Positions 12,139 to 29,219 of a stretch of DNA of 64,000 nt are shown here, one piece after another. Both the position numbers and the translations under genes were made by a program. The stretch is taken from contig JAJYNN010000002.1 of assembly GCA_021786315.1 (NCBI GenBank), positions 545,494 to 609,493 on the forward strand. Reading direction: 5' to 3'. The DNA is from a bacterium. Lineage in GTDB: Bacteria > Patescibacteriota > Microgenomatia > Daviesbacterales > UBA10151. Every line of letters begins with the position of its first letter. Within the stretch, counting starts at the first letter, position 1. Under the pieces are notes generated by a model. It searched no databases and was not told where the DNA came from. It saw nothing but the letters and a program-made list of their open reading frames with translations.

Positions 12139-12434
12139 GAAGTTATTTTATCAAAGTTGTGACCCGGCTAACACTACTTTTTACTTCGTAAAAAGATGTT
12201 GTAATTCTCGCTTCGCTCAAATTATGTGGATTCGAAGGGCCTCTTCCTTAGTCAGACAGAAATAAAAAAGGCGAGGCATAAAACCCCGCTTTTTAATTGT
12301 GACCCGGCTGGGATAGGCACTCCTCGAAGACTCGGAGTTGAACCTCCTTAGCTGTGCCAGATGCGGAGATTCTCGATCCAATAACCGCCTCAAAAATGAA
12401 ATTGCGCTTGGAAAAACCAAACTCAATTTCATTG

Positions 12435-12506
12435 TGACCCGGCTGGGATTCGAACCCAGGACCAAAAGCTTAAAAGGCTTCTGCTCTACCGCTGAGCTAC
12501 CGGGCC
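12435..12506 (-). tRNA. tRNA-Lys (anticodon UUU)
   Basis: Reverse complement GGCCCGGTAGCTCAGCGGTAGAGCAGAAGCCTTTTAAGCTTTTGGTCCTGGGTTCGAATCCCAGCCGGGTCA folds as a cloverleaf. Anticodon loop CTTTTAA, T-loop TTCGAAT. Confidence 0.9.
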
Positions 12507-16810: not shown

Positions 16811-18406
16811 CTAAATATAGATGGCGCGTTCGTCTAGAGGCCTAGGACACTGGGTTTTCATCCCAGGAATCGCGGGTTCGAATCCCGCACGCGCTACTGA
16901 GAGGGATTGTAAGAAGGTTGTGTTTGATTTCCTCTGCGCGGGTGGGGGCGCGCAGAGCTCTCTAAAGCCCTGATTGTAGTCTACGGAAAGTTGCCGATTC
17001 AATAAAAAGAAGTTCGAGCCGACAGTTTTTGCTCCTATGCTTAAATCGGAGCATGTATTTTTTGCGCGCGCGATTTTTGCGCACGAAAGTGCGCTTCCGA
17101 CCCACTCTCTCATAGGTTCGAGCCAACTCGAACCGTTTTGTCTTATTCTCTCCAAATCTTCCTGAATTTTAAGTTTTTGTTCAAAAACTTCGTTCTTTTT
17201 ACTTTTATAAGTTTCACCATCTATTACCTGATCCAAGAAACTATCAAGTAACAAATTGAGCTTTTTATCTAAAGTTTCCAGCTCGTTTTTTAGGGAGATT
17301 ATATTTTCCTCAATGAACTTTTGCTCCTCAACTTCATCCCGATCCATCCATTTATACCAATCATGAGCCCAACTTTCGGGAATAGACACATCAGAAACAA
17401 TCTTTCTTACTTGTAGTTCTAAATCTTCTTGAGAAATATATTTTTGAGAACAAGGTTTAATTTTCTTAGTGCATCTATAGTAAATAAAGGTTTGTTTATT
17501 ACCATTTTTATATTTTTTAGTATGAGTTTCGGTAGTAATAGCCGCACCGCACTCTCCGCACCTCATCAAACCTCTAAAAGCAAAATCATGGCCATTTTTC
17601 CTTGGTCTTTCAATTCTTTTTATTTCTTGTTGAGCAGAATCAAATAGTTTTTTAGAGATAAATGTTTTATGAGAGCCCTGATAATACTCACCGTTATACT
17701 TTAAAATCCCAATATAAAATCTGTTGGATAGCATTTTCTTTATTTGGTTTATATGTAAAGGTTTTTTGTTTATGGTTGTACTTACCCAACCTCGAGTTAA
17801 CCCTAATTTGTGAAGATAGAGGGATATTTCCTTGTAAGATTTACCTCCCTCGGCAAAAAGTTCAAAGGCCTTTTTAATTGCTAAAGAAGTTTCCGGATCT
17901 ACTTGAACAGTTTTTGTATTCGAGTCGTTTTTATACCCGAAAGGTGCTTTCATTGGCCAAACTCCATTGCGAAGTTTTTGCCTTAGCCCACGTTTTACAT
18001 TTTCTGATAAGTTGTCGACATAATATTTGGATTGGCCAAAGGCAATATTTAGCATAAATTTTCCCTGTGGAGTATTTTCAAACCAGAAGGTAGGGAATTT
18101 AAGGTTTAGAAGATTACCGGTATCCAAGAGGTAAATTATTTGGCCGCCGTCAATTGAGTTACGAGCTAATCTATCGGGATGCCAGGCAATAATACCTTGT
18201 GCCTGTCCTTTCTCGATCTTTTTTATTACCTCTGCGAATTTTTCTCTTCCGGGGAGTTTAGCGGTTTTTGACTCTGTTATAAATTCTTTGATTTCTAAGT
18301 TCTCTCTTTTGGCAAATTCTTGAAGCTCAGCAATTTGAGCCTCAATAGAAAGGACTTGTCTATCCTTCTCATCTGTTGATTTTCGGCAGTATGCTATATA
18401 TTTCAT
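16811..18406 (-). CDS. large serine recombinase (resolvase/invertase catalytic domain + recombinase domain + Zn-ribbon + coiled coil)
   Basis: N-terminal YCRKSTDEKDRQVLSIEAQ (Y-x-R-x-S motif), GIIAWHPDRLARN, a Cys4 ribbon CGECG...YYRC, and a coiled-coil tail. The frame has no stop until 16811, so it reads through IR1-left into the tRNA-Glu antisense. The true 3' end is uncertain. Confidence 0.8.
   Translation of the reverse strand: MKYIAYCRKSTDEKDRQVLSIEAQIAELQEFAKRENLEIKEFITESKTAKLPGREKFAEVIKKIEKGQAQGIIAWHPDRLARNSIDGGQIIYLLDTGNLLNLKFPTFWFENTPQGKFMLNIAFGQSKYYVDNLSENVKRGLRQKLRNGVWPMKAPFGYKNDSNTKTVQVDPETSLAIKKAFELFAEGGKSYKEISLYLHKLGLTRGWVSTTINKKPLHINQIKKMLSNRFYIGILKYNGEYYQGSHKTFISKKLFDSAQQEIKRIERPRKNGHDFAFRGLMRCGECGAAITTETHTKKYKNGNKQTFIYYRCTKKIKPCSQKYISQEDLELQVRKIVSDVSIPESWAHDWYKWMDRDEVEEQKFIEENIISLKNELETLDKKLNLLLDSFLDQVIDGETYKSKKNEVFEQKLKIQEDLERIRQNGSSWLEPMREWVGSALSCAKIARAKNTCSDLSIGAKTVGSNFFLLNRQLSVDYNQGFRELCAPPPAQRKSNTTFLQSLSVARAGFEPAIPGMKTQCPRPLDERAIYI
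16823..16896 (+). tRNA. tRNA-Glu (anticodon UUC)
   Basis: GGCGCGTTCGTCTAGAGGCCTAGGACACTGGGTTTTCATCCCAGGAATCGCGGGTTCGAATCCCGCACGCGCTA. D-arm TTCGTCTAGAGGCC is typical of tRNA-Glu. Anticodon loop TTTTCAT. Confidence 0.9.
16894..16996. repeat. IR1-left: 103-bp perfect inverted repeat (partner 18490..18592)
   Basis: Exact reverse-complement match to 18490-18592, verified base by base. Overlaps the last 3 nt of tRNA-Glu. Confidence 0.9.
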
Positions 18407-18489
18407 GGCAGTTTATCTTTAGGGGAAAAGTTCTTTTAGCGACAGCGTTTCCCAGAAATTTTTGCGTGTCTTCTTACTATCTTTCTTTA

Positions 18490-18592
18490 CGGCAACTTTC
18501 CGTAGACTACAATCAGGGCTTTAGAGAGCTCTGCGCGCCCCCACCCGCGCAGAGGAAATCAAACACAACCTTCTTACAATCCCTCTCAGTAG
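18490..18592. repeat. IR1-right: 103-bp perfect inverted repeat (partner 16894..16996)
   Basis: Exact reverse complement of 16894-16996. Lies between the recombinase start (18406) and IR2. Confidence 0.9.
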
Positions 18593-18703
18593 TACGGTAT
18601 CAACAAATTCGAACCTATTTCAAATCGACGTATGCATCGGTCGGTCGGTAGAAGCCCCTCCGCTTCGCGTCGGGGCCTTCTGATCTTTAAGCTCGGCCTT
18701 CGG
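18589..18703. repeat. IR2-left: 115-bp perfect inverted repeat (partner 28385..28499)
   Basis: Exact reverse complement of 28385-28499. Abuts IR1-right, sharing 4 nt. Confidence 0.9.
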
Positions 18704-18764
18704 TCGAAGCTCTGAAACTGTCGGTTCCGAAAACGCAAAAATTTCAAAGAACTTTTCCAAAAAA

Positions 18765-21700
18765 TTATGCACTAAGTTGTATGTATGGATAATCCTTGTA
18801 AAGATTCTCTGCCTGTTCATATACCTTATCAACCATCAAGTCCACCTCTGCAAATGAAATATTATTCCTTAATAAGACTAACCTCACATCTGCTCTTACT
18901 CGAGCTTTAATAATTTCATGGTTAGTCCAGTCAATTGCTATATCTGCCCTTATAGCATGTATAATTTCTTTCACAATCCTCTTTAGATTACTATCTTTTA
19001 AAGACTTCTTACCCAGTGATAAGGCATCATAAAAAGCTAATTCCTCTACTGTTAATCCAATCTCCTTGCCAACTTCACTTGCTTGTCTAATTTCTCTAGC
19101 CAGTTCTAATAATTTATCTATCACTTTAGATGAATTGATAATATTGTTTTCATATTCCTCAATGATTTCTTCTAATTTATTAAGGAGAGTGTCATACCTT
19201 AAAATATTTGTTCTTCTGCGCATTTTTAATTCATCTTTTAACAGTTTGTTTATTGCCTCAATTGTTAGATTCTTAAATCTAGATTTCTTAATATCTTCCA
19301 GGAATCTTTCATCCAATATAGAAATATCAGGTTCCTCTCTCCCATTTTGAGAAAATATATCTATTACACCCTCAGCGACTATATTTTTTGAGATTAGATC
19401 TTTAATCGCGGTTTCTGTTTCATTACTTATATAGATTGGGTCTACAGTAGTGTTTTTAATGATAATTTTTCTAACTCCTTCGAAAAATTCTAGTTCTTCC
19501 CGAATATTATTTGCCGCTTTATGTGGCATTACTAAAGAGAAAAATTTATATAGTCTGCTGGAAAGGCTTAAGTATTGGTCTTTTTGTGCTGTATTTATAC
19601 CACCAGATACCGGATCCGTTAAAATTCCATTAACCGCTCTTGCAAAAAGTGACGCCAGTTCGCTACTAGGTAACTTATGCCAGTTGGTATATTCAATCCC
19701 TTCAAAAAATTTCTTTACTTTTTTATAGTGTTCTAACATTTTCGCGACCATCTCCTCTATTGGAACCATGGCTTGTTTTTGAACATCCGAAGTGTAGATT
19801 GCTAAAGCTTTCTTTAAGTTATCAGCAACACCAATATAATCAACAATTAACCCACCCTCTTTATCTTTATAGCGTCTGTTAACCCTAGCAATTGCCTGCA
19901 TCAAAGTATGACCTTCAAGAGGTTTATCTAAATAGAGTGTATTTAAATGAGGAACATCAAAGCCTGTAAGCCACATATCACAAACGATAACAATTTTTAA
20001 AGGATCTTCAGGATTTTTGAATCTTTTCTCAATTTCCCTATTATCTAACTCTTCTTGAATTTGTCCCTGAAAATCCTTACTGCCAGAAACAACAACAGCA
20101 ATTTCCGGTGCACCCTTCATTGTTTTGATAATTTCGTACATTCTTGCAGCAATTCTTCTACTCATAGTCACAAGTAATGCCTTTCCTTTATATCTTCTAT
20201 TTATAAAATGAAAAACGACATCATAAGCCACTTTTTGTAATCGATCCTCCGCTCCAATAGCGCTCTCCAAAGTAGCCCATTTATTCCTTAAGACGTCTTT
20301 TGTATCTATTGGATGCTCAGCTAATAATTGATCAAAGTCCAAATCAATGTATTTGTTGAAAACATGTAGAGGGGTTAATCGTCCTTCATAGTAGATTGGC
20401 ACCGTTGTTCCGTCCTCAACTGCTTTATCAATTGGATATTCACTAAATTCCTCACCAAAGACCATTTGTGTATTTCTGTTTTGCAAAGAGATTGGAGTAC
20501 CAGTAATACCCATAAAAGAGGCATTTGGTAAAACATCTCTAACATTGCCTGCAAATGTGGCATATTGCGATCTGTGCGCTTCGTCTGCAATCACGATAAT
20601 ATTTTCTCTTTCCGATAAAGGTTCTCTCGTATCAAACTTCTGAATAGTAGTAAATAGAACCTCGGATCCAGCTCCTTTTAGCTGATTAATTAATCCAGCG
20701 ATACTGCCTGCTTGTTTTACAGTGGGGTAACCTGTTCGCAAGAAAGTTTTATACAGCTGCTGATCCAAATCATTACGGTCTGTTAAAAACAGTATTGTCG
20801 GGCTTTTTAGTTGCTCCGCTCTTTTAGCTTTATTAACATAGAAAACCATAGATAAAGATTTTCCGCTTCCTTGTGTATGCCAAAAAACTCCAATCTTTTT
20901 ATTACTAACGATAGCTTGTAAAGTTCTTCCAATCGCTTTGTTCACGCCAAAATATTGATGATACATCGCCATCTTCTTGGTAAATTTAGAAGCATCTTTC
21001 TCAGCGTCTGCCTCAAAGACAATAAAGTTCTCAATTAGATCAAGTAAATGATTTTTATTAAACATTCCCTTTATCAAAAGTTCTAATTCTGACTTCTCTA
21101 GATTTTTTTCGTTCTCACTCTCTATTCCTTTCCAAACATTAAAAAAGTCGAAGGAAGACGAAATAGTTCCATGCTTCGCCTTCATTAGATCGCTGATAAC
21201 AAGTACCTGGTTATACAAAAATATCTTTGGAATTTCTTTTTTATACAAGTCGTGAATTTGTGAGTATGCGTCGGCAATTGTCACCTTTCCATCAACGGGA
21301 TTTTTTACTTCAAATAATCCCACGGGAATTCCGTTAATAAAAACGACCACGTCTGGAATTCTTATAGAAGATCCTTGAACAGAAAATTGGTTAACTACTA
21401 AAAACTCGTTGTTATCCGGATTTCTATAATCAATAATATTTACGATCTCACCTTTAAGATCATTATTTTTGTCTTTGACTTCTACTCTTATCCCTTCCGT
21501 CAACCACTTAAAAACTTCTTTGTTTCCTAACTCTAAATCCTGATGATCATATTTAGTGATCTTATCTACAACCTCGTTAACTTTTTCATCTGGAATATCT
21601 GGATTTATTCTTTTTAAAGATCTTTTTAGTCGCGTCTCTAGAACAACCTCTCTATAATCACTACGTTCTTGAAAAGTTCCGCCAGGGGAGATATCAGGAC

Positions 21701-21782
21701 CATATGCATGTTCATAACCCAATTCATTGAGCCATTCTAATACTGGTTTTTCTGCTAAATTATTTTCATTAAGTTTTGACAT
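18765..21782 (-). CDS. hsdR: type I restriction enzyme R subunit HsdR
   Basis: HTQGSGKSLSMVFYV (Walker A), IVIADEAHRSQY (DEAH box), helicase C motifs. 1005 aa. Confidence 0.95.
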   Translation of the reverse strand: MSKLNENNLAEKPVLEWLNELGYEHAYGPDISPGGTFQERSDYREVVLETRLKRSLKRINPDIPDEKVNEVVDKITKYDHQDLELGNKEVFKWLTEGIRVEVKDKNNDLKGEIVNIIDYRNPDNNEFLVVNQFSVQGSSIRIPDVVVFINGIPVGLFEVKNPVDGKVTIADAYSQIHDLYKKEIPKIFLYNQVLVISDLMKAKHGTISSSFDFFNVWKGIESENEKNLEKSELELLIKGMFNKNHLLDLIENFIVFEADAEKDASKFTKKMAMYHQYFGVNKAIGRTLQAIVSNKKIGVFWHTQGSGKSLSMVFYVNKAKRAEQLKSPTILFLTDRNDLDQQLYKTFLRTGYPTVKQAGSIAGLINQLKGAGSEVLFTTIQKFDTREPLSERENIIVIADEAHRSQYATFAGNVRDVLPNASFMGITGTPISLQNRNTQMVFGEEFSEYPIDKAVEDGTTVPIYYEGRLTPLHVFNKYIDLDFDQLLAEHPIDTKDVLRNKWATLESAIGAEDRLQKVAYDVVFHFINRRYKGKALLVTMSRRIAARMYEIIKTMKGAPEIAVVVSGSKDFQGQIQEELDNREIEKRFKNPEDPLKIVIVCDMWLTGFDVPHLNTLYLDKPLEGHTLMQAIARVNRRYKDKEGGLIVDYIGVADNLKKALAIYTSDVQKQAMVPIEEMVAKMLEHYKKVKKFFEGIEYTNWHKLPSSELASLFARAVNGILTDPVSGGINTAQKDQYLSLSSRLYKFFSLVMPHKAANNIREELEFFEGVRKIIIKNTTVDPIYISNETETAIKDLISKNIVAEGVIDIFSQNGREEPDISILDERFLEDIKKSRFKNLTIEAINKLLKDELKMRRRTNILRYDTLLNKLEEIIEEYENNIINSSKVIDKLLELAREIRQASEVGKEIGLTVEELAFYDALSLGKKSLKDSNLKRIVKEIIHAIRADIAIDWTNHEIIKARVRADVRLVLLRNNISFAEVDLMVDKVYEQAENLYKDYPYIQLSA

Positions 21783-21783
21783 A

Positions 21784-22602
21784 TTAGTGATCTTCCAATT
21801 GTAATTTTTGTTGAGGTTCTTTATATGACTCTATATCAACTACTTTAATTTTGGGAACCTCATAATCACTATTTCTTATTACTATCCCTCTCAACTGAAC
21901 TTTTTCCATTTCAAGATATTCGTGAAATTTCGTCGTACTCTTTTCTTTATCCAAAGGAGAAACATTTAAGGTGTACCCTTTATAAATAAATCCTAAATCA
22001 TTTAATTTTTTATTTATCCGTGTAATTTCTCCATCTATAACAACTTCCTCTCCGTTTCTAAGTTCCGGTAATATGGGATCTTCTTGTTTATCTACATAAA
22101 ATTGATACTTATTATCGCAAGTAATCTTGAATGACTTATCTCCTATAACGATTTCCGCATGTTCGTTGTATTCGCTAACTGGCCTCGCCATTTTTTCTGC
22201 ACCTTTTCTGAAATCATAACTTCTACATAATTCAAAGACCTTCTTGTCGGAAATGGCGTCTAACAATTCTTTTGTGGGATTCTTCAAGCTATTCGATCCA
22301 AATCTATCGATTATTACAAAGGCTGATACTATTATTGTGGCTACATAACTTATTCGCTCTACGGTTTGCCAGGGGTGCTTCTGAACATATATAAGCTTTG
22401 TTCTAACCGAACCATTTTCAATTGGAAGAACGTATATATTATCGTAAGCCAGCATTCCTATTTTTGCTGCTTCTTTTAAACATGTCTCCAAGCCAATAAT
22501 TGCTTCTCCTAACTCTTTAGCTGGCATTGCACTTTTTTCCGCAGAATACACTAAGAATATTTCCGATGAAGAGGGATCGACTTGGAATAGTTGTTGATTC
22601 AT
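21784..22602 (-). CDS. hypothetical protein embedded between hsdS and hsdR (no recognisable domain)
   Basis: 272-aa ORF, translationally coupled on both sides (1-nt gaps) inside the hsdM-hsdS-X-hsdR operon. Confidence 0.5.
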   Translation of the reverse strand: MNQQLFQVDPSSSEIFLVYSAEKSAMPAKELGEAIIGLETCLKEAAKIGMLAYDNIYVLPIENGSVRTKLIYVQKHPWQTVERISYVATIIVSAFVIIDRFGSNSLKNPTKELLDAISDKKVFELCRSYDFRKGAEKMARPVSEYNEHAEIVIGDKSFKITCDNKYQFYVDKQEDPILPELRNGEEVVIDGEITRINKKLNDLGFIYKGYTLNVSPLDKEKSTTKFHEYLEMEKVQLRGIVIRNSDYEVPKIKVVDIESYKEPQQKLQLEDH

Positions 22603-23745
22603 CTAAATTGTTATTTCTCCTTTCATTAATTTTGGTAAAAGCAAATCACGCAAAGCAGTTAATTTTTGATTTTCCAGCTTTAAACTGATCATAGTTCTGT
22701 AAGTAACATCAAAAATATTTATATTTTTATTGTCAGATATAAAAATATTTTGTTCTTTTAAATGCTCTTTTTTAATATGTCCCATGGTCGTAGCTTTGGC
22801 ACCCGCCTGTTGTTGAAAAAATTTTAGCTTCGACTTAAGAAGAAAATATATAAACCCTTTGGAAAAATCACTTGTTGGAACTACATTAAATATATGCTGG
22901 TTTAATATCGCCTTATCTTTATCCCAGATATACAAATCTACTGTACCAGACCAAGAGAATAGCAAGTCACCGTTTTGGATGTAATATTTATCGTCCACCT
23001 TTTTGTCTATCCATTCAGTATTATCTGAAACTCCTCTGTTTAAGTCAGCAATTTTTATTAGCGGAAGTCCTTTCTTCATTCTGTTTGTAATTTTTCCAAA
23101 AGCCCCGCCATTAATATAATTCGCTATATCCAACAATGAATATTTAGTACCTTCATTAGAGGAGAACCATTTTTTAAAAAATGTCTGGGCCATTTCTTCT
23201 AAAGTTTTTGAAATTTTATTGTTCACTTCAATCTTTTCATCTAATGCAGCTAAAATTCTGGAAATTTTTTTTTGTATAGACAATGGAGGGGTTGGAACTA
23301 AAACATTCTCGAAAGTACCAAGATTAATATTGTCTTGTGCGCTACCGATGGCATAACTTTGAATATTTCTCTTAAGATATTGCAGAGAATATAGAATAAA
23401 ATCTGGATCGCTTTTTTCTTCGTCTGCTAAAAAACCGATTACACTATCAGGGAAACACGCCGGAAAAGTTAGTTTTCCTAAATCTGCAATATTTGCTGCG
23501 ATCGTTATACAAATTGTATTAACGGGCCACATCCTACTTTGTTTTAAACCATTTTCACTGTATGTTTGTGAATATGAAGTTATTCGACCACCTGAGGCTT
23601 TCACATCACCTGTTTGTATAAATGGGTACGGACCACCATACAATATCCTTGCGTCTCTTGGCCGATGTCGAGATCTTCCTCTATTAAGTTCACCTAACTG
23701 AGTTAATTTTTTTAATTGCCAATTATCTGGAATCTGATTTTGCAT
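22603..23745 (-). CDS. hsdS: type I restriction-modification specificity subunit HsdS (two target-recognition domains)
   Basis: 380 aa. Duplicated TRD/conserved-helix architecture. Positioned between hsdM and hsdR. Confidence 0.85.
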   Translation of the reverse strand: MQNQIPDNWQLKKLTQLGELNRGRSRHRPRDARILYGGPYPFIQTGDVKASGGRITSYSQTYSENGLKQSRMWPVNTICITIAANIADLGKLTFPACFPDSVIGFLADEEKSDPDFILYSLQYLKRNIQSYAIGSAQDNINLGTFENVLVPTPPLSIQKKISRILAALDEKIEVNNKISKTLEEMAQTFFKKWFSSNEGTKYSLLDIANYINGGAFGKITNRMKKGLPLIKIADLNRGVSDNTEWIDKKVDDKYYIQNGDLLFSWSGTVDLYIWDKDKAILNQHIFNVVPTSDFSKGFIYFLLKSKLKFFQQQAGAKATTMGHIKKEHLKEQNIFISDNKNINIFDVTYRTMISLKLENQKLTALRDLLLPKLMKGEITI

Positions 23746-23746
23746 A

Positions 23747-25537
23747 TTAATAATTAATCTTTTTTAGATTTTCTAAAATTTCCTTTTCTAATTTTTCAGA
23801 TTTTGTGAAATATTGTTTTAGTTCTGATTCTAATTCTTTCATCTTTTCTTCGAACGGAACTCCATCCTCCTCTTCATCCTCCACTCCAACAAAACGACCC
23901 GGTGTTAAAACATAACCACTTTTTACAATTTCCTCTTTTGTTGTTGCCTTACAAAATCCGGAAACATCTTTATATTCTCCATTTTCGCTCCTCCAAGCCC
24001 TCACAGTATTAGCAATTAGCTGAACTTGTTCTTCATTAAAAGTCACTTGTTTTCGAGAGATTTGAGTAAAATATTTTGAGTCTCGAGCATCAATGAAAAG
24101 AGTTTCTCCTTTTCTGTTTCTGAATCTGCCGGATTCTTTATTTTTTGTGACAAACCATAACGACACTGGAAGGGAAACATTAAAAAATAGTTTTGGAGGA
24201 CAAGCAATTATTACATCAATCAGATCATCCTCAATCATTCTTTTTCTGATTTCACCTTCCTTGCCGGAAACAGCCAACGCTCCATTAGCCATTACAAATC
24301 CAGCTATTCCATTTGGGGTTAAGTGGTTTATAAAATGTTGAATCCACATAAAGTTAGCATTTCCTTTCGGAGGAGTGCCATAAACTAATCTCGGATCTTT
24401 TTCAGAAAGACGATCTGAATCCCATTCTGCATTAAATGGAGGATTAGCCAGGATAAAATCGACTTTAAGTTCTCTGAACTTGTCATCATAGTAAGAATTA
24501 CCAAATTGGATATTTCCAAAAACTCCACGGATAGCAAGATTCATCTTGCAGAGCTTTAAAGTTGTTTGATTACTTTCTTGGCCGAATATGGATATTTTTG
24601 TCGGATCTTTATGGTGCTCTTGCAAGAATTTGCTGGACTGGACAAACATTCCACCAGACCCACAACATGGGTCTAAAACCCTACTGTTTTCATAAGGTTC
24701 AAGAATTTCAACTAAAAGTTTTACTAGCGAACGAGGTGTATAAAATTCTCCTCCTCTTTTACCCTCAGCATCAGCAAACTGTCCCAAGAAATATTCATAG
24801 ACTCTACCAAGTAAATCTTTCTCTCTATCCTCATCATCGTTGAAATCTATCCGGGAAAAAATATTAATGAGTTCTCCTAAGATTTGACTTTCAAGTGGAA
24901 CGCGAACATAACTCTTTGGCAGAACTCCTGTCAGCTGTTCAGGGTTTTCATTTTCTATAGCTTCCATAGCATCGTCGATATACTTCGCTAAATCTGATAA
25001 GGCAGCTTTGCTTCTCAAATATTCCCATCTGGCGATTTCTGGAATATAAAAGATCCCCTCCTTCTTATACATGTCTTTATCTTCCAAAATCATTTCTCGA
25101 GCAGCGGGGTTAGGGATATAGTATTGCTTGTTTTTGGAATCACTCATCCATTTTTGAAGTTTTTCTCTTCTTTGGTAAAAAGAATCAGAAATATACTTAA
25201 GGAAAATAAGACCTAAAACGACATTCTTGTAATCAGAAGAATCAATATTACCCCTAAGTCTATCTGCAGCTGCCCATAGCTCTTTTTCAAAATGAATATC
25301 TGTTTTAGGTTTACTAGCTAAATCCCGAGCTTCCTTTGCTGTAGCTTTTTGAGTTTGGATAATTCTATCTTTAAAATCCTGAGGAAGAGTATTGTACTTT
25401 AGAAGATATTTTTTACCCTCTGTTCGTGTTTCGATTTCTCCAGCATTAATTTTACCTTGGAGTTGCTTTAAAACAGCCTGACGAGATATACCTAATATCC
25501 TGGCGATATCACTAATTGAGATAAAATTTTCATCCAT
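23747..25537 (-). CDS. hsdM: type I restriction-modification N6-adenine methyltransferase HsdM with extra N-terminal HTH-like domain
   Basis: HsdM_N motif ELWAAADRLRGNIDSSDYKNVVLGLIFLKYISD, SAM motif LDPCCGSGGM, catalytic NPPF (FILANPPFN). The first ~85 aa (ISISDIARILGISRQAVLKQL) are an additional HTH. Confidence 0.95.
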   Translation of the reverse strand: MDENFISISDIARILGISRQAVLKQLQGKINAGEIETRTEGKKYLLKYNTLPQDFKDRIIQTQKATAKEARDLASKPKTDIHFEKELWAAADRLRGNIDSSDYKNVVLGLIFLKYISDSFYQRREKLQKWMSDSKNKQYYIPNPAAREMILEDKDMYKKEGIFYIPEIARWEYLRSKAALSDLAKYIDDAMEAIENENPEQLTGVLPKSYVRVPLESQILGELINIFSRIDFNDDEDREKDLLGRVYEYFLGQFADAEGKRGGEFYTPRSLVKLLVEILEPYENSRVLDPCCGSGGMFVQSSKFLQEHHKDPTKISIFGQESNQTTLKLCKMNLAIRGVFGNIQFGNSYYDDKFRELKVDFILANPPFNAEWDSDRLSEKDPRLVYGTPPKGNANFMWIQHFINHLTPNGIAGFVMANGALAVSGKEGEIRKRMIEDDLIDVIIACPPKLFFNVSLPVSLWFVTKNKESGRFRNRKGETLFIDARDSKYFTQISRKQVTFNEEQVQLIANTVRAWRSENGEYKDVSGFCKATTKEEIVKSGYVLTPGRFVGVEDEEEDGVPFEEKMKELESELKQYFTKSEKLEKEILENLKKINY

Positions 25538-25627
25538 GCCGGAAGCAGTATAGTACTAAAAAATAATTCTGTCAAGTTGTCATCGTGACAACCTTAAATT
25601 AGAAATAATTGCGATACAAGAGTTTCT

Positions 25628-26485
25628 TCAGTAACACTTTTTAGTGCTACTACCCTCTAAATAATAAGACTCTTTTTTAGGATCAAACCGATATGTATTC
25701 TTTTCTTCGGTATCACTTCCATGATCTCCACAAGACCAACCTTGCTCAACCTTCCCTTCAGAATTTGGCAGAAAGTTATCGACCCAGTAGAAAGTTTGAT
25801 CTTTGTTGATTATTGGATAGACAACAGCTTTATTATTGGCCTTACTATATCCCAAGACTAAATGTTCAGTATGTCCACAAGCCAAAGTAAAACCATTTAG
25901 GAGAAACTCATAATAATACCCATCGCCGTTTAAATCCTGAAAATTCATCAAGTCCACATCTGTATACTCGAGTTGTTCTACAGAAGGTTCGCTACCTTCC
26001 AATTTCAAATAAGCCGGATCAGCGTTCATTCTGATATTTTGATAAGCTAAACGGATATTATTGCTTGGAGGTAATGGTTTCCCTGTACTTAAATCTACAT
26101 TAGAGCCCGAACCCGGAATCGAAACATCATTAATAAGTTTGTTGTTTTGTATCAGGGCTAAATGATAGTTACCTTCAATCGCTCTTCCCTCTATGCCGGA
26201 AGCACAAGAAGTATAAGCAGACCATCTGCGGGATGGTTCTAATAATTCGTCTGTTTTAGAGTTTAATACATAGAGCACCAAGTACGATTCAGGAGAAAGA
26301 TTGGGAATTTTCTTATATTCTCGGAGTAATGCTTCTTTGGGAATTAAGTTCTTGATAGAACTGTCGCTAATATTTGTTTTATCGGGTTTATTTATGTTTT
26401 TTGTATCAATTTTTAAAGAGGGAAAATAGAAGAAACCAACAATCAACACAAATGGAATGATAAATAATAACTTTTTTCTGCTCAT
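25628..26485 (-). CDS. secreted/membrane-anchored Cys-containing hypothetical protein
   Basis: N-terminal TM LLFIIPFVLIVGFFYF. No recognisable domain. Confidence 0.4.
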   Translation of the reverse strand: MSRKKLLFIIPFVLIVGFFYFPSLKIDTKNINKPDKTNISDSSIKNLIPKEALLREYKKIPNLSPESYLVLYVLNSKTDELLEPSRRWSAYTSCASGIEGRAIEGNYHLALIQNNKLINDVSIPGSGSNVDLSTGKPLPPSNNIRLAYQNIRMNADPAYLKLEGSEPSVEQLEYTDVDLMNFQDLNGDGYYYEFLLNGFTLACGHTEHLVLGYSKANNKAVVYPIINKDQTFYWVDNFLPNSEGKVEQGWSCGDHGSDTEEKNTYRFDPKKESYYLEGSSTKKCY

Positions 26486-27273
26486 TTATTACTATCAAAA
26501 ATATTTATTTCAGATACATTAATAACATTGGCTTCTCTAGTTAGGTTTCCTTTAACCATTACTTGTTTGTTTATAGAATTGTTGATGGTATTGAGGGCTG
26601 TTTGGGATTTTGGGAGTAGCTTCCATAAAGTTGTATCGGGTAAAGATAAATAGTATTGTCCGTCTTGAGTTTTCTGAATAGTTCCTTGATAGACAATAGC
26701 TCGATGAAGGATAGGGCTTGAGTTAGGGAAAAGAATTCCGGCAGCCGAATTTAGACCAGAGGTATAACCAGTTCCGAAAGAAGCTGCGAGGGCAATCATA
26801 ATAGCTACTGCAGTCATAGGCTTAATTCTAAACTTAAATCCAATATCTATGCCCTCGTTTCCCAAAAGGTGTTTAATCCATTTTTTAAAGTAAGTTACGG
26901 GATTAGTAACTTTCACATCCACCATTGGAGGATCATTATTTTCTGAGTATTTATCATTTTGGGTTACTTGGATTGGAGCAGGGTAAGAGGAATCAGGGTG
27001 ATCAGGGATATTAGGGGAAATTGGAGGATTGGGATTATCAGGGACAGTATAATCACTTTTAATAAAGTGTCCTTGGGCATCTCGCTTTTGGTGTTTTGCT
27101 AATTCACTTTGAACAGGGTCTATTAAGTCAGGAGAAGGATTTGAAGGAATAGGAGGAATGGGGGTATCAGGGAAATTGGGGGGATTCGGGGAAGGAGTTT
27201 GAGCTAATGGTTCGGGTTGAGTTGGTTGTTGAGGGGTAAAGGAATTATTAGGATCAGGCAGTTTGTCATCCAT
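26482..27273 (-). CDS. Pro-rich membrane-anchored hypothetical protein (paralog B of 15092..16069)
   Basis: Shares the DPPMVDVKVTNPVTYFKKWIKHLLGNEGIDIGFKFRIKPMTAVAIMIALAASFGTGY core with the chromosomal paralog. Confidence 0.5.
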   Translation of the reverse strand: MDDKLPDPNNSFTPQQPTQPEPLAQTPSPNPPNFPDTPIPPIPSNPSPDLIDPVQSELAKHQKRDAQGHFIKSDYTVPDNPNPPISPNIPDHPDSSYPAPIQVTQNDKYSENNDPPMVDVKVTNPVTYFKKWIKHLLGNEGIDIGFKFRIKPMTAVAIMIALAASFGTGYTSGLNSAAGILFPNSSPILHRAIVYQGTIQKTQDGQYYLSLPDTTLWKLLPKSQTALNTINNSINKQVMVKGNLTREANVINVSEINIFDSNK

Positions 27274-27339
27274 AAATCCAGTATATCTACTAGATTAGAA
27301 AGGTGCAACTGCAGCGGAAATATACAAAAAGTTATCCAA

Positions 27340-28330
27340 TATATTGTGTATTGACTCGGCTTTCCATACAAGGTGTAAAATTTAATTACTCTCTGCAGTA
27401 GCGGAGGTAGAAGGGAGGGCCATGAATTTGACCCAACTTTTGTACTCCGTGAGTATCTTTGGTAATTGAAACTAGCAAACGGACAAGCAAGGAGGATCCA
27501 AATAACCTTGCTTACTTAATTGTTCAGGGAAGATTACTGACAACACTCTAGCGGAGGCTCACCTTTGTCTTACCTAAAGGTTAAGTGTTGTCTACCGGAA
27601 AATTGGGAGAGAATAACCAATCAAAGCAAACTGAGACGTCGGTTTGGGGAGATATAGGTATTAGGTACTTTTGTAGGTGAGAGGGCCACTCAGTATTCTC
27701 ACTGGGTGGCCTTTTCTTTATTCTCCTTGCAAACTCTTTTCTCTTCTGTGGCGGTTCCGCCGCCCCCGCCCCTTTGGGATAATAACCGTTCAGGAGGGCA
27801 GCACCTTAGAAGAAATCTTTTTGGAATTAGTAGTAAGTAAAATGGGTGCTGCCCGACAATAGCGAGGGCCGAGAAAGCCAAGTCATATTTTAGAAGAACC
27901 GGCCCGAGCCCTCGGAATTAGTGCGAGAAAGTTTCTCGAGAAACTTTCGAGCGGCATGGATGCAAGTAGGGCTAAAAATTGCGGCGGGGGCGATTGCGGA
28001 CAAACCCCCGCAACGGCAGGAGGTATTAGAAAGAAGAAAAGGGTAGGCGAAAAGTACCGAAGGTAACCTTACCCAACGAACTTTTCGCCGAGTTAGATAC
28101 TACCAATACTAGTTCGTAAGGCAACAATATAGGCGAGGCGCCCCCTAGGGCGACCTCTCGCCCAAAAGCGGGGGTGCCGCTACTACTAATTTGGGTGGGT
28201 GGGTTAGTTCAGGATACAAGATTTACTCTTCTTACCCGTTACCGTAGCGGTAACGGTATCCGTAACGGTCCGTTACGGTGATTAGCTTGTCAAAAACCGC
28301 TAAACTCCCCATTCTTAAATATCTTAATAA
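27340..28330 (+). other. ~1 kb GC-rich non-coding region with dense predicted secondary structure (candidate structured ncRNA and/or iteron/ori-like region)
   Basis: No ORF of 62 aa or longer on either strand. GC-rich helices in an AT-rich genome. Several helices only work with G-U pairs on the + strand. Contains a 22-bp perfect palindrome and four ~11-nt CCGTTACGG-type repeats. Confidence 0.3.
27684..27720 (+). terminator. rho-independent terminator-like hairpin inside the non-coding region
   Basis: GGCCACTCAGT-attctc-ACTGGGTGGCC followed by TTTTCTTTA. Confidence 0.5.
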
Positions 28331-28384
28331 TTCTTTAAAAATCGCGCGCTTTTCTGTCTCTTAGCAAAAAATACCAGAGCGAGG

Positions 28385-28499
28385 CCGAAGGCCGAGCTTA
28401 AAGATCAGAAGGCCCCGACGCGAAGCGGAGGGGCTTCTACCGACCGACCGATGCATACGTCGATTTGAAATAGGTTCGAATTTGTTGATACCGTACTAC
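28385..28499. repeat. IR2-right: 115-bp perfect inverted repeat (partner 18589..18703)
   Basis: Exact reverse complement of 18589-18703. Confidence 0.9.
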
Positions 28500-28510
28500 A
28501 AAAGAAAAAG

Positions 28511-28540
28511 TCCTCCCTTCGGGGAGGCTTTTTGTTTTTT
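28511..28540. terminator. bidirectional rho-independent terminator
   Basis: CCTCCC-TTCG-GGGAGG hairpin with a T-run on the + strand (CTTTTTGTTTTTT) and an A-run before it. Insulates the island from the sigma/anti-sigma operon. Confidence 0.65.
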
Positions 28541-28639
28541 AACTGTGATTAGGCAAGAATCTGCGCATCTCGCAGAGCTAAGCAGGTTCGATCAGGCAAA
28601 GCCTGACAACATCTTCGAGCAAAGCGAGAAGTAGTGTTA

Positions 28640-28657
28640 ATCCCCGCACGCGCTACT
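28640..28657 (+). repeat. direct repeat of tRNA-Glu 3' end (putative attR core)
   Basis: atccccgcacgcgctact versus tRNA 16882-16898 atcccgcacgcgctact (one extra C). Preceded by the motif acaacatcttcgagcaaagcgagaagtagtgtta. Confidence 0.7.
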
Positions 28658-29219
28658 TGTTACGATTAAAATGGTGAGTTTTTAGACCCTTAACCTCACC
28701 GTTTCCTTTTTGAGTTTCAGAAGCAGCCCGCCGCAATTTTTCCGAAGAAGCAGGATTCTTCCGGGCTTCATCTTCAAACTTTCTTCCCTGAATATTGATC
28801 TCCTTTTTAACTTCCTCTTTCCGGGCAGAACTGCTTGCCATATTTTCACTATCCTTTACCGCTTCCTGATAATGCTCAATCGCATCATCCAATTTCTTTG
28901 GGTCATTACTTACTTTCAAAACATCATCGCCCCTTCTTTCTATAATTAAGGAGGGGTTATTGGTGGCTTTGGCCACTATATTATCAGCCAATACTTTAAT
29001 CGGATAGAACGTGTCCCCGGGTTCAGCTGCCTGAACTACCCCTCCAAACCCGCCTAGAATTATTAATGCCCCAATCAAACTCAAGACTATCTTTGAATAA
29101 GGAACAGGCGAATTATAAGCATTCTGATCACCCAATTTGGACTCCAACTTTTTCCACTCTTTATCAGGATTATTATCTGAAATATTAATATAGCTTTTTC
29201 TTAATTCCTCTAATTTCAT
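28653..29219 (-). CDS. putative anti-sigma factor / membrane protein downstream of ECF sigma
   Basis: Single TM IVLSLIGALIILGGFGGVV. Start overlaps the sigma gene stop by 4 nt. Confidence 0.4.
   Translation of the reverse strand: MKLEELRKSYINISDNNPDKEWKKLESKLGDQNAYNSPVPYSKIVLSLIGALIILGGFGGVVQAAEPGDTFYPIKVLADNIVAKATNNPSLIIERRGDDVLKVSNDPKKLDDAIEHYQEAVKDSENMASSSARKEEVKKEINIQGRKFEDEARKNPASSEKLRRAASETQKGNGEVKGLKTHHFNRNK

Follow-up and report, generated by a model that had tools for sequence, protein, structure and literature searches.

A probable integrative element of Patescibacteria, inserted at a tRNA-Glu gene by a large serine recombinase, with a type I restriction–modification operon as cargo and a putative second, inverted copy of its attachment site

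We analysed a stretch of 64,000 nucleotides (hereafter, the window) from contig JAJYNN010000002.1 of a bacterium of the Patescibacteriota (assembly GCA_021786315.1), in which a gene for a large serine recombinase (LSR) and a complete type I restriction–modification (R-M) operon lie in two adjacent segments, each bounded by perfect inverted repeats (arms A and A′ around the LSR gene, arms B and B′ around the cargo). Bases 16898–28499 probably constitute an 11.6-kb integrative element that is driven by the LSR, carries the R-M operon as cargo and belongs to a very large family in the candidate phyla radiation (CPR)/Patescibacteria. Insertion would have occurred by recombination between the attachment sites attP and attB at the last bases of a tRNA-Glu gene (core CTAC), between the tRNA and its terminator. 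The empty target would be tRNA-Glu joined to the terminator, and the junction of the excised circle, B′|A, would be attP. The left junction, attL, would then be tRNA|A and the right junction, attR, would be B′|terminator, with A′|B as a second intact attP lying inverted between the LSR gene and the cargo. In this scheme, both inverted-repeat pairs would be the two halves of attP, each present in two copies.

A search for repeats in the window returned two perfect inverted pairs, i.e., 16894–16996 with 18490–18592 (A and A′, 103 nt, 100% complementary) and 18589–18703 with 28385–28499 (B and B′, 115 nt, 100% complementary, 9681 nt between them). Chance cannot account for a perfect repeat of 115 nt in 64 kb of sequence. 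Four nucleotides (GTAG, 18589–18592) are common to both pairs, and A′ and B form one contiguous unit of 214 nt (18490–18703), the reverse complement of which is B′ followed by A. The initial annotation of this DNA had described the 115-bp repeats, the 4 nt shared by the two pairs and two neighbouring modules, both with inverted repeats at their ends and linked to a serine recombinase, in agreement with what we found; its gene list (hsdR, an unknown gene, hsdS, hsdM, two hypothetical genes and a non-coding block) was also recovered by open reading frames (ORFs), Pfam and PADLOC. It had further suggested a transposon-like unit. The idea of a mobile unit stands, but not that of a composite transposon, which we discarded because the arms are 103–115 nt of att sequence without a transposase and the window holds a single recombinase gene.

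The same layout recurs throughout a large family. Homologues of the LSR number more than 7600, almost all of them in Patescibacteria/CPR. Our sample comprised 161 loci, i.e., 80 from species-representative genomes, 80 from JGI metagenomes and the window, and the tools applied to it were self-BLAST, tblastn and ARAGORN. Of the 161 loci, 130 have the A pair, one arm preceding the LSR start by 50–150 nt and the second being located at the 3′ end of the gene. In 61 loci there is also a B pair; one of its arms abuts the A pair with an overlap of 2–15 nt, and the distance to its other arm is 0.5–7.6 kb. Loci without a pair mostly have a contig end near the recombinase gene. A tRNA gene in antisense orientation abuts the 3′ arm of the LSR in 107 loci, representing more than 12 tRNA specificities, and complete or long-read genomes (L037, L045, L061 and L079) show the layout too. 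The family is nearly absent from viruses, with only four weak matches in 2.9 million viral contigs, and a phage origin was ruled out on that ground. Neither this architecture nor serine recombinases in Patescibacteria turned up in a full-text search of the literature; as far as that search goes, a tRNA-targeting LSR element with a retained inverted attP is a variant of LSR integrative elements without a published description.

Several observations point to integration at the tRNA gene. Arm A adjoins the 3′ end of tRNA-Glu at position 16897, and directly past arm B′ there are a hairpin and a T-run (28500–28540), with a terminator-like site on both strands (28512–28527). In arm B′, 16 nt separate a T-loop mimic, GGTTCGAAT, from the core CTAC (28496–28499), and the end of this arm, ataGGTTCGAATttgttgataccgtaCTAC, resembles the tRNA 3′ end, gcgGGTTCGAATcccgcacgcgCTAC. 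The GC content is 0.33–0.375 within the element and 0.40–0.44 in the flanks. In a junction table of 24 elements, the junctions tRNA|A, B′|A and B′|flank all occur, with a short core and without long direct repeats, the tRNA end and B′ having only 2–15 nt in common. In 23 of these 24 elements, the distance between the T-loop-like motif and the core is 4–5 nt greater in B′ than in the tRNA (4 nt in 17 and 5 nt in 6). This displacement matches the published attP/attB signature, since the motif bound by the LSR zinc ribbon sits 5 bp nearer the centre in attB than in attP (PMC3783163). We also considered a tRNA-like remnant (28636–28685) as the true attR and rejected it because in relatives B′ directly abuts the next host feature; in L014, for instance, a host tRNA lies 10 nt from arm B′.

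The remnant itself, 140 nt past B′, resembles the tRNA-Glu 3′ end followed by the start of arm A (GTTAATCCCCGCACGCGCTAC...) and overlaps the end of a gene for a 188-aa protein; an earlier insertion at this tRNA may have left it as a scar. Elsewhere in the window, a 23-nt direct repeat (96% identity, 12292–12314 and 12427–12449, 135 nt apart) includes the 3′ end of a tRNA-Lys gene (12434–12506, − strand) and may be the footprint of another tRNA-targeting element, now lost.

The recombinase gene indicates what integration would do to the element. The LSR shows the Pfam domains PF00239 Resolvase (1.8e-22), PF07508 Recombinase (1.6e-13) and PF13408 Zn_ribbon_recom (6e-11). Its residues R8, K9 and S10 are invariant in 22 homologues, and S10 is the predicted catalytic serine, a role assigned by membership in the family. 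The gene reads antisense into tRNA-Glu, and its last ~28 codons are antisense tRNA-Glu. Arm A codes on the − strand for roughly 35 LSR residues before the crossover, LSVDYNQGFRELCAPPPAQ...SLSV, a stretch conserved in the same 22 homologues (...NRQL..YN.GF.ELCA.PPAQ...SLSV). Past the core, the tail of the integrated form has a recurrent G-[FIV]-E-P, which is the antisense T-loop, followed by 1 to >60 junk residues. Such antisense-tRNA tails occur in 83 of 104 single-length homologues in the protein database, where native tails are rare. Read from A′ into B on the + strand, the window gives the native LSR 3′ end, ...SLSV|VRYQQIRTYFKSTYASVGR, with a tail ending in ...SLSVVRYQQIRTYFKSTYASVGR and a stop at 18649–18651. 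The tail of this attP form, x[VIL][YF]E[KQ][IV]RTxF[KQ], is conserved in most of 75 elements, and in most of them a stop follows, at a median of 14 residues past the core; no other reading than that from A′ into B yields the conserved peptide and its stop. Because attP lies inside the LSR 3′ end, integration would swap a conserved C-terminal peptide of ~15 residues for antisense-tRNA junk, and the internal A′|B copy is where the native 3′ end is preserved. We discarded an independent small protein as the product of the internal copy: the window has an open frame of 91 aa, but relatives lack a conserved start and their frame often meets a stop at the arm edge. No second conserved gene was seen as a candidate for a directionality factor, nor any protein common to the cargo segments, although no dedicated search for such a factor was made.

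Recombinase genes can themselves be joined at the att core. In L078 (3064–5610) and L145 (1353–2972), the recombinase ORF crosses the core into a second recombinase gene, from about residue 119 of the latter (..AFGQSKYYVDNLSEN..), and double-length fusion recombinases of ~865–920 aa are found among the homologous proteins (P0002, P0003 and P0005–P0008). It seems that one subfamily has the recombinase genes of other elements as its targets and not tRNA genes.

Two loci bear on whether the internal attP copy is active. In L035 (9796–11582), convergent tRNA-Glu genes (UUC and CUC) flank the LSR module on either side, the identity of the arms is 86%, and the arrangement looks like a chromosomal inversion in which the retained attP recombined with a second tRNA gene. 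L169 (6467–20593) harbors an array that reads tRNA-Lys|A, LSRa (leftward), A′|B, cargo, B′|A, LSRb (rightward), A′|B and a type I R-M system; here a second element is joined at the attP copy, and LSRb keeps the native C-terminal tail. From these two cases, we conclude that the internal copy can recombine.

The arms are far more alike within an element than between elements. Median identity within an element is 98.8% for the A arms (46 of 130 pairs perfect) and 99.1% for the B arms (26 of 61), in comparison with 46% and 60%, respectively, between elements. Mismatches are evenly spread, rising only at the inner edge, and there is a decayed tail down to 82%. The arms evolve in concert: they are either homogenised, or made identical in each cycle of mobility and left to decay. 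A role in protein binding alone does not explain this identity. Our preferred reading of the internal copy, a tentative one and the weakest part of our interpretation, is that it serves as a spare 3′ end for the LSR gene. If the 1.5-kb LSR segment were, on rare occasions, inverted between the A arms, the native gene would be restored without excision, and the internal copy would stay a live attP, able to recombine with another tRNA gene or to dock a second element. We further hypothesize, with more doubt, a self-rearming “suicidal” serine integrase, in which the spare gene end would re-activate the element without a directionality factor. The 1.5-kb inversion would be carried out by the LSR itself or by homologous recombination between the A arms, and the near-identity of the arms would be renewed at each mobility cycle, as in long terminal repeats (LTRs). 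If this is true, the retained attP would also dock incoming elements and drive tRNA-to-tRNA inversions, shaping the small genomes of CPR bacteria.

Some points weigh against the integrative element with a retained attP as proposed here. For a circle that carries two identical copies of attP, integration would be expected through either one, but only one isomer is seen (107:2); the use of a single isomer needs an extra assumption, i.e., selection or a context effect, and none of the readings we considered explains why only one of two identical copies is used. Published LSRs do not recombine attL or attR with attP (PMC3783163). The spare 3′ end, which would depend on a predicted inversion, does not strictly require the long perfect identity of B and B′. 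Regarding the boundaries, no empty site was found through the flanking genes (exact look-ups of two proteins gave no result) and the 188-aa protein of the right flank is an orphan without homologues; for these reasons, the limits of the insertion rest on the terminator, the family comparison and GC content. Neither an excised circle nor any circular or terminally redundant contig was found among the 80 metagenome loci.

There is next to no chance that an assembler created the repeats and the segment order through chimeric joins, as perfect, adjacent repeats and the many related contigs that stop at them could suggest. An independent k=31 Logan assembly of the public run SRR13201255 contains a contig (L001) of 9741 nt, i.e., 9681 + 2 × 30, which breaks exactly 30 nt into both 115-nt arms, as a true repeat predicts, and on this basis misassembly, a concern raised in the initial annotation, is excluded. 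The layout recurs, moreover, in ~130 loci produced by many assemblers, including the complete or long-read genomes named above, and arm A is in-frame coding sequence conserved among LSR homologues. The central proposal of that annotation was a recombinase-driven flip of the whole defence cassette, for example as an on/off switch of the R-M operon relative to an outside promoter. In this reading, the LSR would flip the 9.7-kb segment, and one could extend it to a flip of its own 1.5-kb segment as well. Each arm is indeed a full att half-site with its core, in inverted orientation, beside a recombinase with an invariant serine 10; recombination between such sites would regenerate identical sites, and L035 shows that the internal site can recombine. 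Nevertheless, we find an invertible defence cassette highly improbable. The LSR reads into the tRNA in 107 loci, against 2 in which a tRNA lies upstream of the LSR (L035 and L067), and a candidate structured RNA, described below, lies near the distal arm on the strand opposite to the LSR in all 12 elements with a mapped arm. With the orientation of both landmarks fixed, any flip-flopping of either segment would have to stay below what consensus assemblies show; a rare inversion may still exist at the level of reads. The repeats are att half-sites, and the cargo that they enclose is arbitrary across the family. The initial annotation had given weight to where the promoter lies, and a strong sigma-70-like site (a consensus match, not proof) is found within the segment, immediately before hsdM. 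The operon has only one hsdS, which lacks internal repeats, and characterised LSRs recombine only attP with attB (PMC3783163). Exact-protein look-ups for orientation variants of the same element gave only k=31 contigs stopping at the repeats.

Two other explanations take the repeats as working units of a different kind. Elements with modular terminal inverted repeats (TIRs), in which the A...A′ recombinase module and the B...B′ cargo module move or exchange independently in a composite-like manner, are in our view unlikely. Such modules would account for the perfect inverted repeats that bound each segment, for L035, where the LSR module stands alone between two tRNA genes, for the alternating modules of the L169 array, and for near-identical B′ arms accompanied by different A arms and cargo in L014, L015, L018 and L020. 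But the cores are usually non-palindromic (TCACC, CAACA and CACCA), and with such cores a polar serine recombinase could invert a TIR-bounded module but would not excise it; B′ adjoins A′ in every LSR module examined except those of L035 and L067; and no solo cargo modules were found, though no systematic search was made for them. Excision of a module through a palindromic crossover dinucleotide fits the core CTAC of the window and was ruled out by those same cores of the relatives. It is very unlikely, on the other hand, that the internal copy acts by base-pairing, either as a single-stranded DNA splint joining the A and B′ ends, similar to the internal complementary region of DIRS retroelements, or as RNA whose paired arms would insulate the LSR and the cargo against read-through. 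Perfect complementarity covers ~100 nt of the copy on either side, its two parts are exactly contiguous, the spectrum of arm identity is LTR-like (35% of pairs perfect, median ~99%, tail to 82%, even mismatches), and the fixed orientation suits a role that does not invert. Against this, relaxase, Rep and reverse transcriptase are all missing from the minimal elements, the sites of serine recombinases have to be duplex, and the argument is purely geometric. The features of the probable LSR element in the window are collected in Table 1.

Table 1. Features of the putative element and its borders, in coordinates of the 64,000-nt window.
Feature	Position	Strand	Evidence or remarks
LSR ORF, integrated form, 531 aa	16811..18406	−	Pfam
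tRNA-Glu(UUC)	16823..16897	+	ARAGORN; Rfam tRNA 60.7 bits
Putative attB left half and shared core	tRNA-Glu 3′ end; core CTAC 16894–16897	+	tRNA abuts arm A
Arm A, 103 nt	16894..16996	.	putative right half of attL; inverted-repeat pair
LSR upstream region, family-wide motif ACGCAAAAATT	18407..18489	−	motif upstream of ATG in related loci too
Putative internal inverted attP copy	18490..18703	.	A′ 18490–18592 and B 18589–18703
Complete type I R-M operon	18765..25537	−	Pfam, PADLOC
hsdR	18765–21782	−	PADLOC REase_I 2.4e-255
Gene of unknown function, 272 aa	21784–22602	−	between hsdS and hsdR
hsdS	22603–23745	−	PADLOC Specificity_I 3.6e-79
hsdM	23747–25537	−	PADLOC MTase_I 3.9e-163
Sigma-70-like promoter match TTGACA-17-TATACT, 11/12	25575–25547	−	best in the region; consensus match, not proof
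Two hypothetical genes, 285 aa and 263 aa	25628–26485, 26482–27273	−	ORFs
Non-coding block, 1.1 kb	27274–28384		
Candidate structured RNA, ~480 nt	27736..28213	+	nhmmer homology and covariation
Arm B′, 115 nt	28385..28499	.	putative left half of attR; junction table of 24 elements
Putative attB right half: hairpin and T-run	28500..28540	+	probably original tRNA-Glu terminator

The cargo varies across the family. Segments between B and B′ range from 0.56 to 9.7 kb, with no common protein family and essentially no common DNA across elements. Since the cargo is unrelated from element to element, the architecture is not about restriction–modification, and the R-M operon is ordinary cargo, one among many, with its own promoter-like site. 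Its hsdS is a single complete gene with two target-recognition domains and no repeats within 22603–23745, and phase variation by hsdS shuffling was ruled out for that reason. The 272-aa protein has no match in the defence database; it shows a weak, sub-threshold match to a “LAPAL motif” family (26 bits against a cutoff of 60). The 285-aa and 263-aa proteins have no Pfam, PADLOC or NCBIfam matches.

The non-coding block contains a candidate for a new family of structured RNAs associated with these elements. Searches with nhmmer showed region 27736–28213 to be homologous to non-coding DNA in 13 other elements (14 with the window), with copies in L006 (2894–3332), L040 (4622–5037), L023 (5784–6226), L025 (4656–5061), L016 (667–1065), L017 (5031–5410), L036 (5405–5777), L089 (3764–4171), L103 (853–1248), L112 (3866–4317) and L092 (23–560). 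It is GC-rich, ~400–480 nt long and has long-range helices. In an alignment of 12 sequences, 37 base pairs are 93.3% paired, compared with 46–56% in slid controls, and 16 of them show compensatory change; the observed values were reached by 0 of 500 shuffles. One-sided changes are all G-U on the + strand of the window. This pattern of covariation suggests, at the level of sequence comparison, a conserved RNA fold. The region has no Rfam match: two sub-threshold terminator look-alikes at E ≤ 1 were the only hits in 27200–28700, and at the gathering score only tRNAs were returned. The RNA is confined to the LSR subclade closest to the window, and its strand points towards attR. A guide function found no support, as the longest matches to the tRNA end, flank or attP are 5–10 nt and at inconsistent positions. 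In the same block, 75 nt before B′, there is a perfect 22-nt inverted copy of recombinase codons (..KTAKLPG..; 18251–18272 and 28289–28310), and just upstream of it a cluster of GTAACGG/CCGTTAC repeats (~28235–28280).

CPR contigs very often start or end ~100–300 nt from these recombinase genes, at the repeat arms (L008, L012, L028, L029, L046, L011, L022, L024, L032 and many others). The repeat architecture is a systematic cause of assembly breaks in CPR genomes, which is why assemblies so often stop next to these genes. Beyond this practical matter, the LSR family appears to act as a major route for the entry of cargo, R-M systems included, into minimal CPR genomes. Its attB half-site is the universally conserved T-loop of tRNAs plus a few matching 3′-terminal bases, and with such a half-site, close relatives can retarget to many different tRNA genes, a site design that may interest those who engineer serine integrases. 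Among described integrative elements, we found none that retains an intact attP in inverted orientation, and explaining its near-identical ~100-nt arms and fixed orientation could reveal a new mode of directionality control or of end regeneration. The ~480-nt RNA adds a candidate structured-RNA family.

Compared with known LSR elements (phiC31, Bxb1, A118/LI, CcrAB of SCCmec, XisF and TnpX), the element shares the three-domain LSR with its serine nucleophile, the short core, the lack of long direct repeats at its ends and the 4–5 bp motif displacement (PMC3783163). Unlike them, it would target tRNA genes at their extreme 3′ end, recognised by way of a T-loop mimic, has its putative attP inside the 3′ end of the recombinase ORF and would keep a complete second attP, inverted, within the element and with ~100-nt perfect arms. 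It also differs in that no conserved second gene was seen as directionality factor and in its near-absence from viral contigs.

Resemblance to the Hin/Gin/Cin/Pin systems is found in a recombinase gene that lies in or next to an inverted-repeat segment holding its sites, and in adjacent segments that share a site. Hin/Gin-type invertases are proteins of ~190 aa that act on 26-bp sites with an enhancer, and both orientations coexist. Here, the recombinase is an LSR of 531 aa, the arms would be integration half-sites and one orientation dominates (107:2 and 12:0). A small invertase of that type, with ~190 aa and a C-terminal helix-turn-helix, was ruled out by the length of the LSR and by its score against the Mpi invertase model (21.6 bits against a cutoff of 272). 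The yeast 2-micron plasmid is a circle with two long perfect inverted repeats, each holding a recombinase target, and DIRS retroelements have an internal region complementary to both termini. The predicted excised circle would look similar to the former, by analogy only; neither of the two is a bacterial integrative element or a user of serine recombinases, and the element described here is without replication or reverse-transcription functions.

Integrase-driven chromosomal inversions between tRNA genes are reported in Thermococcales (PMC5495485), where the enzyme is a plasmid tyrosine integrase. L035 is comparable, as the expected product of recombination between the retained attP and a second tRNA-Glu gene, with the difference that the site would be the resident attP copy of a serine-integrase element. 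Another parallel is with integrases whose own gene is changed by integration. In Mx8 (IntP/IntX), the attachment site lies within the integrase ORF, and integration changes the integrase gene. Archaeal “suicidal” tyrosine integrases of the SSV type likewise have attP within the ORF, so that integration alters or splits the gene (PMC7253208). In contrast to both, the enzyme considered here is a serine recombinase, only its last ~15 codons would be exchanged and the element contains what may be a spare copy, in inverted orientation, of the severed end, a feature that those systems are not known to have. By analogy, the element would be a serine-recombinase counterpart of the “suicidal” tyrosine integrases.

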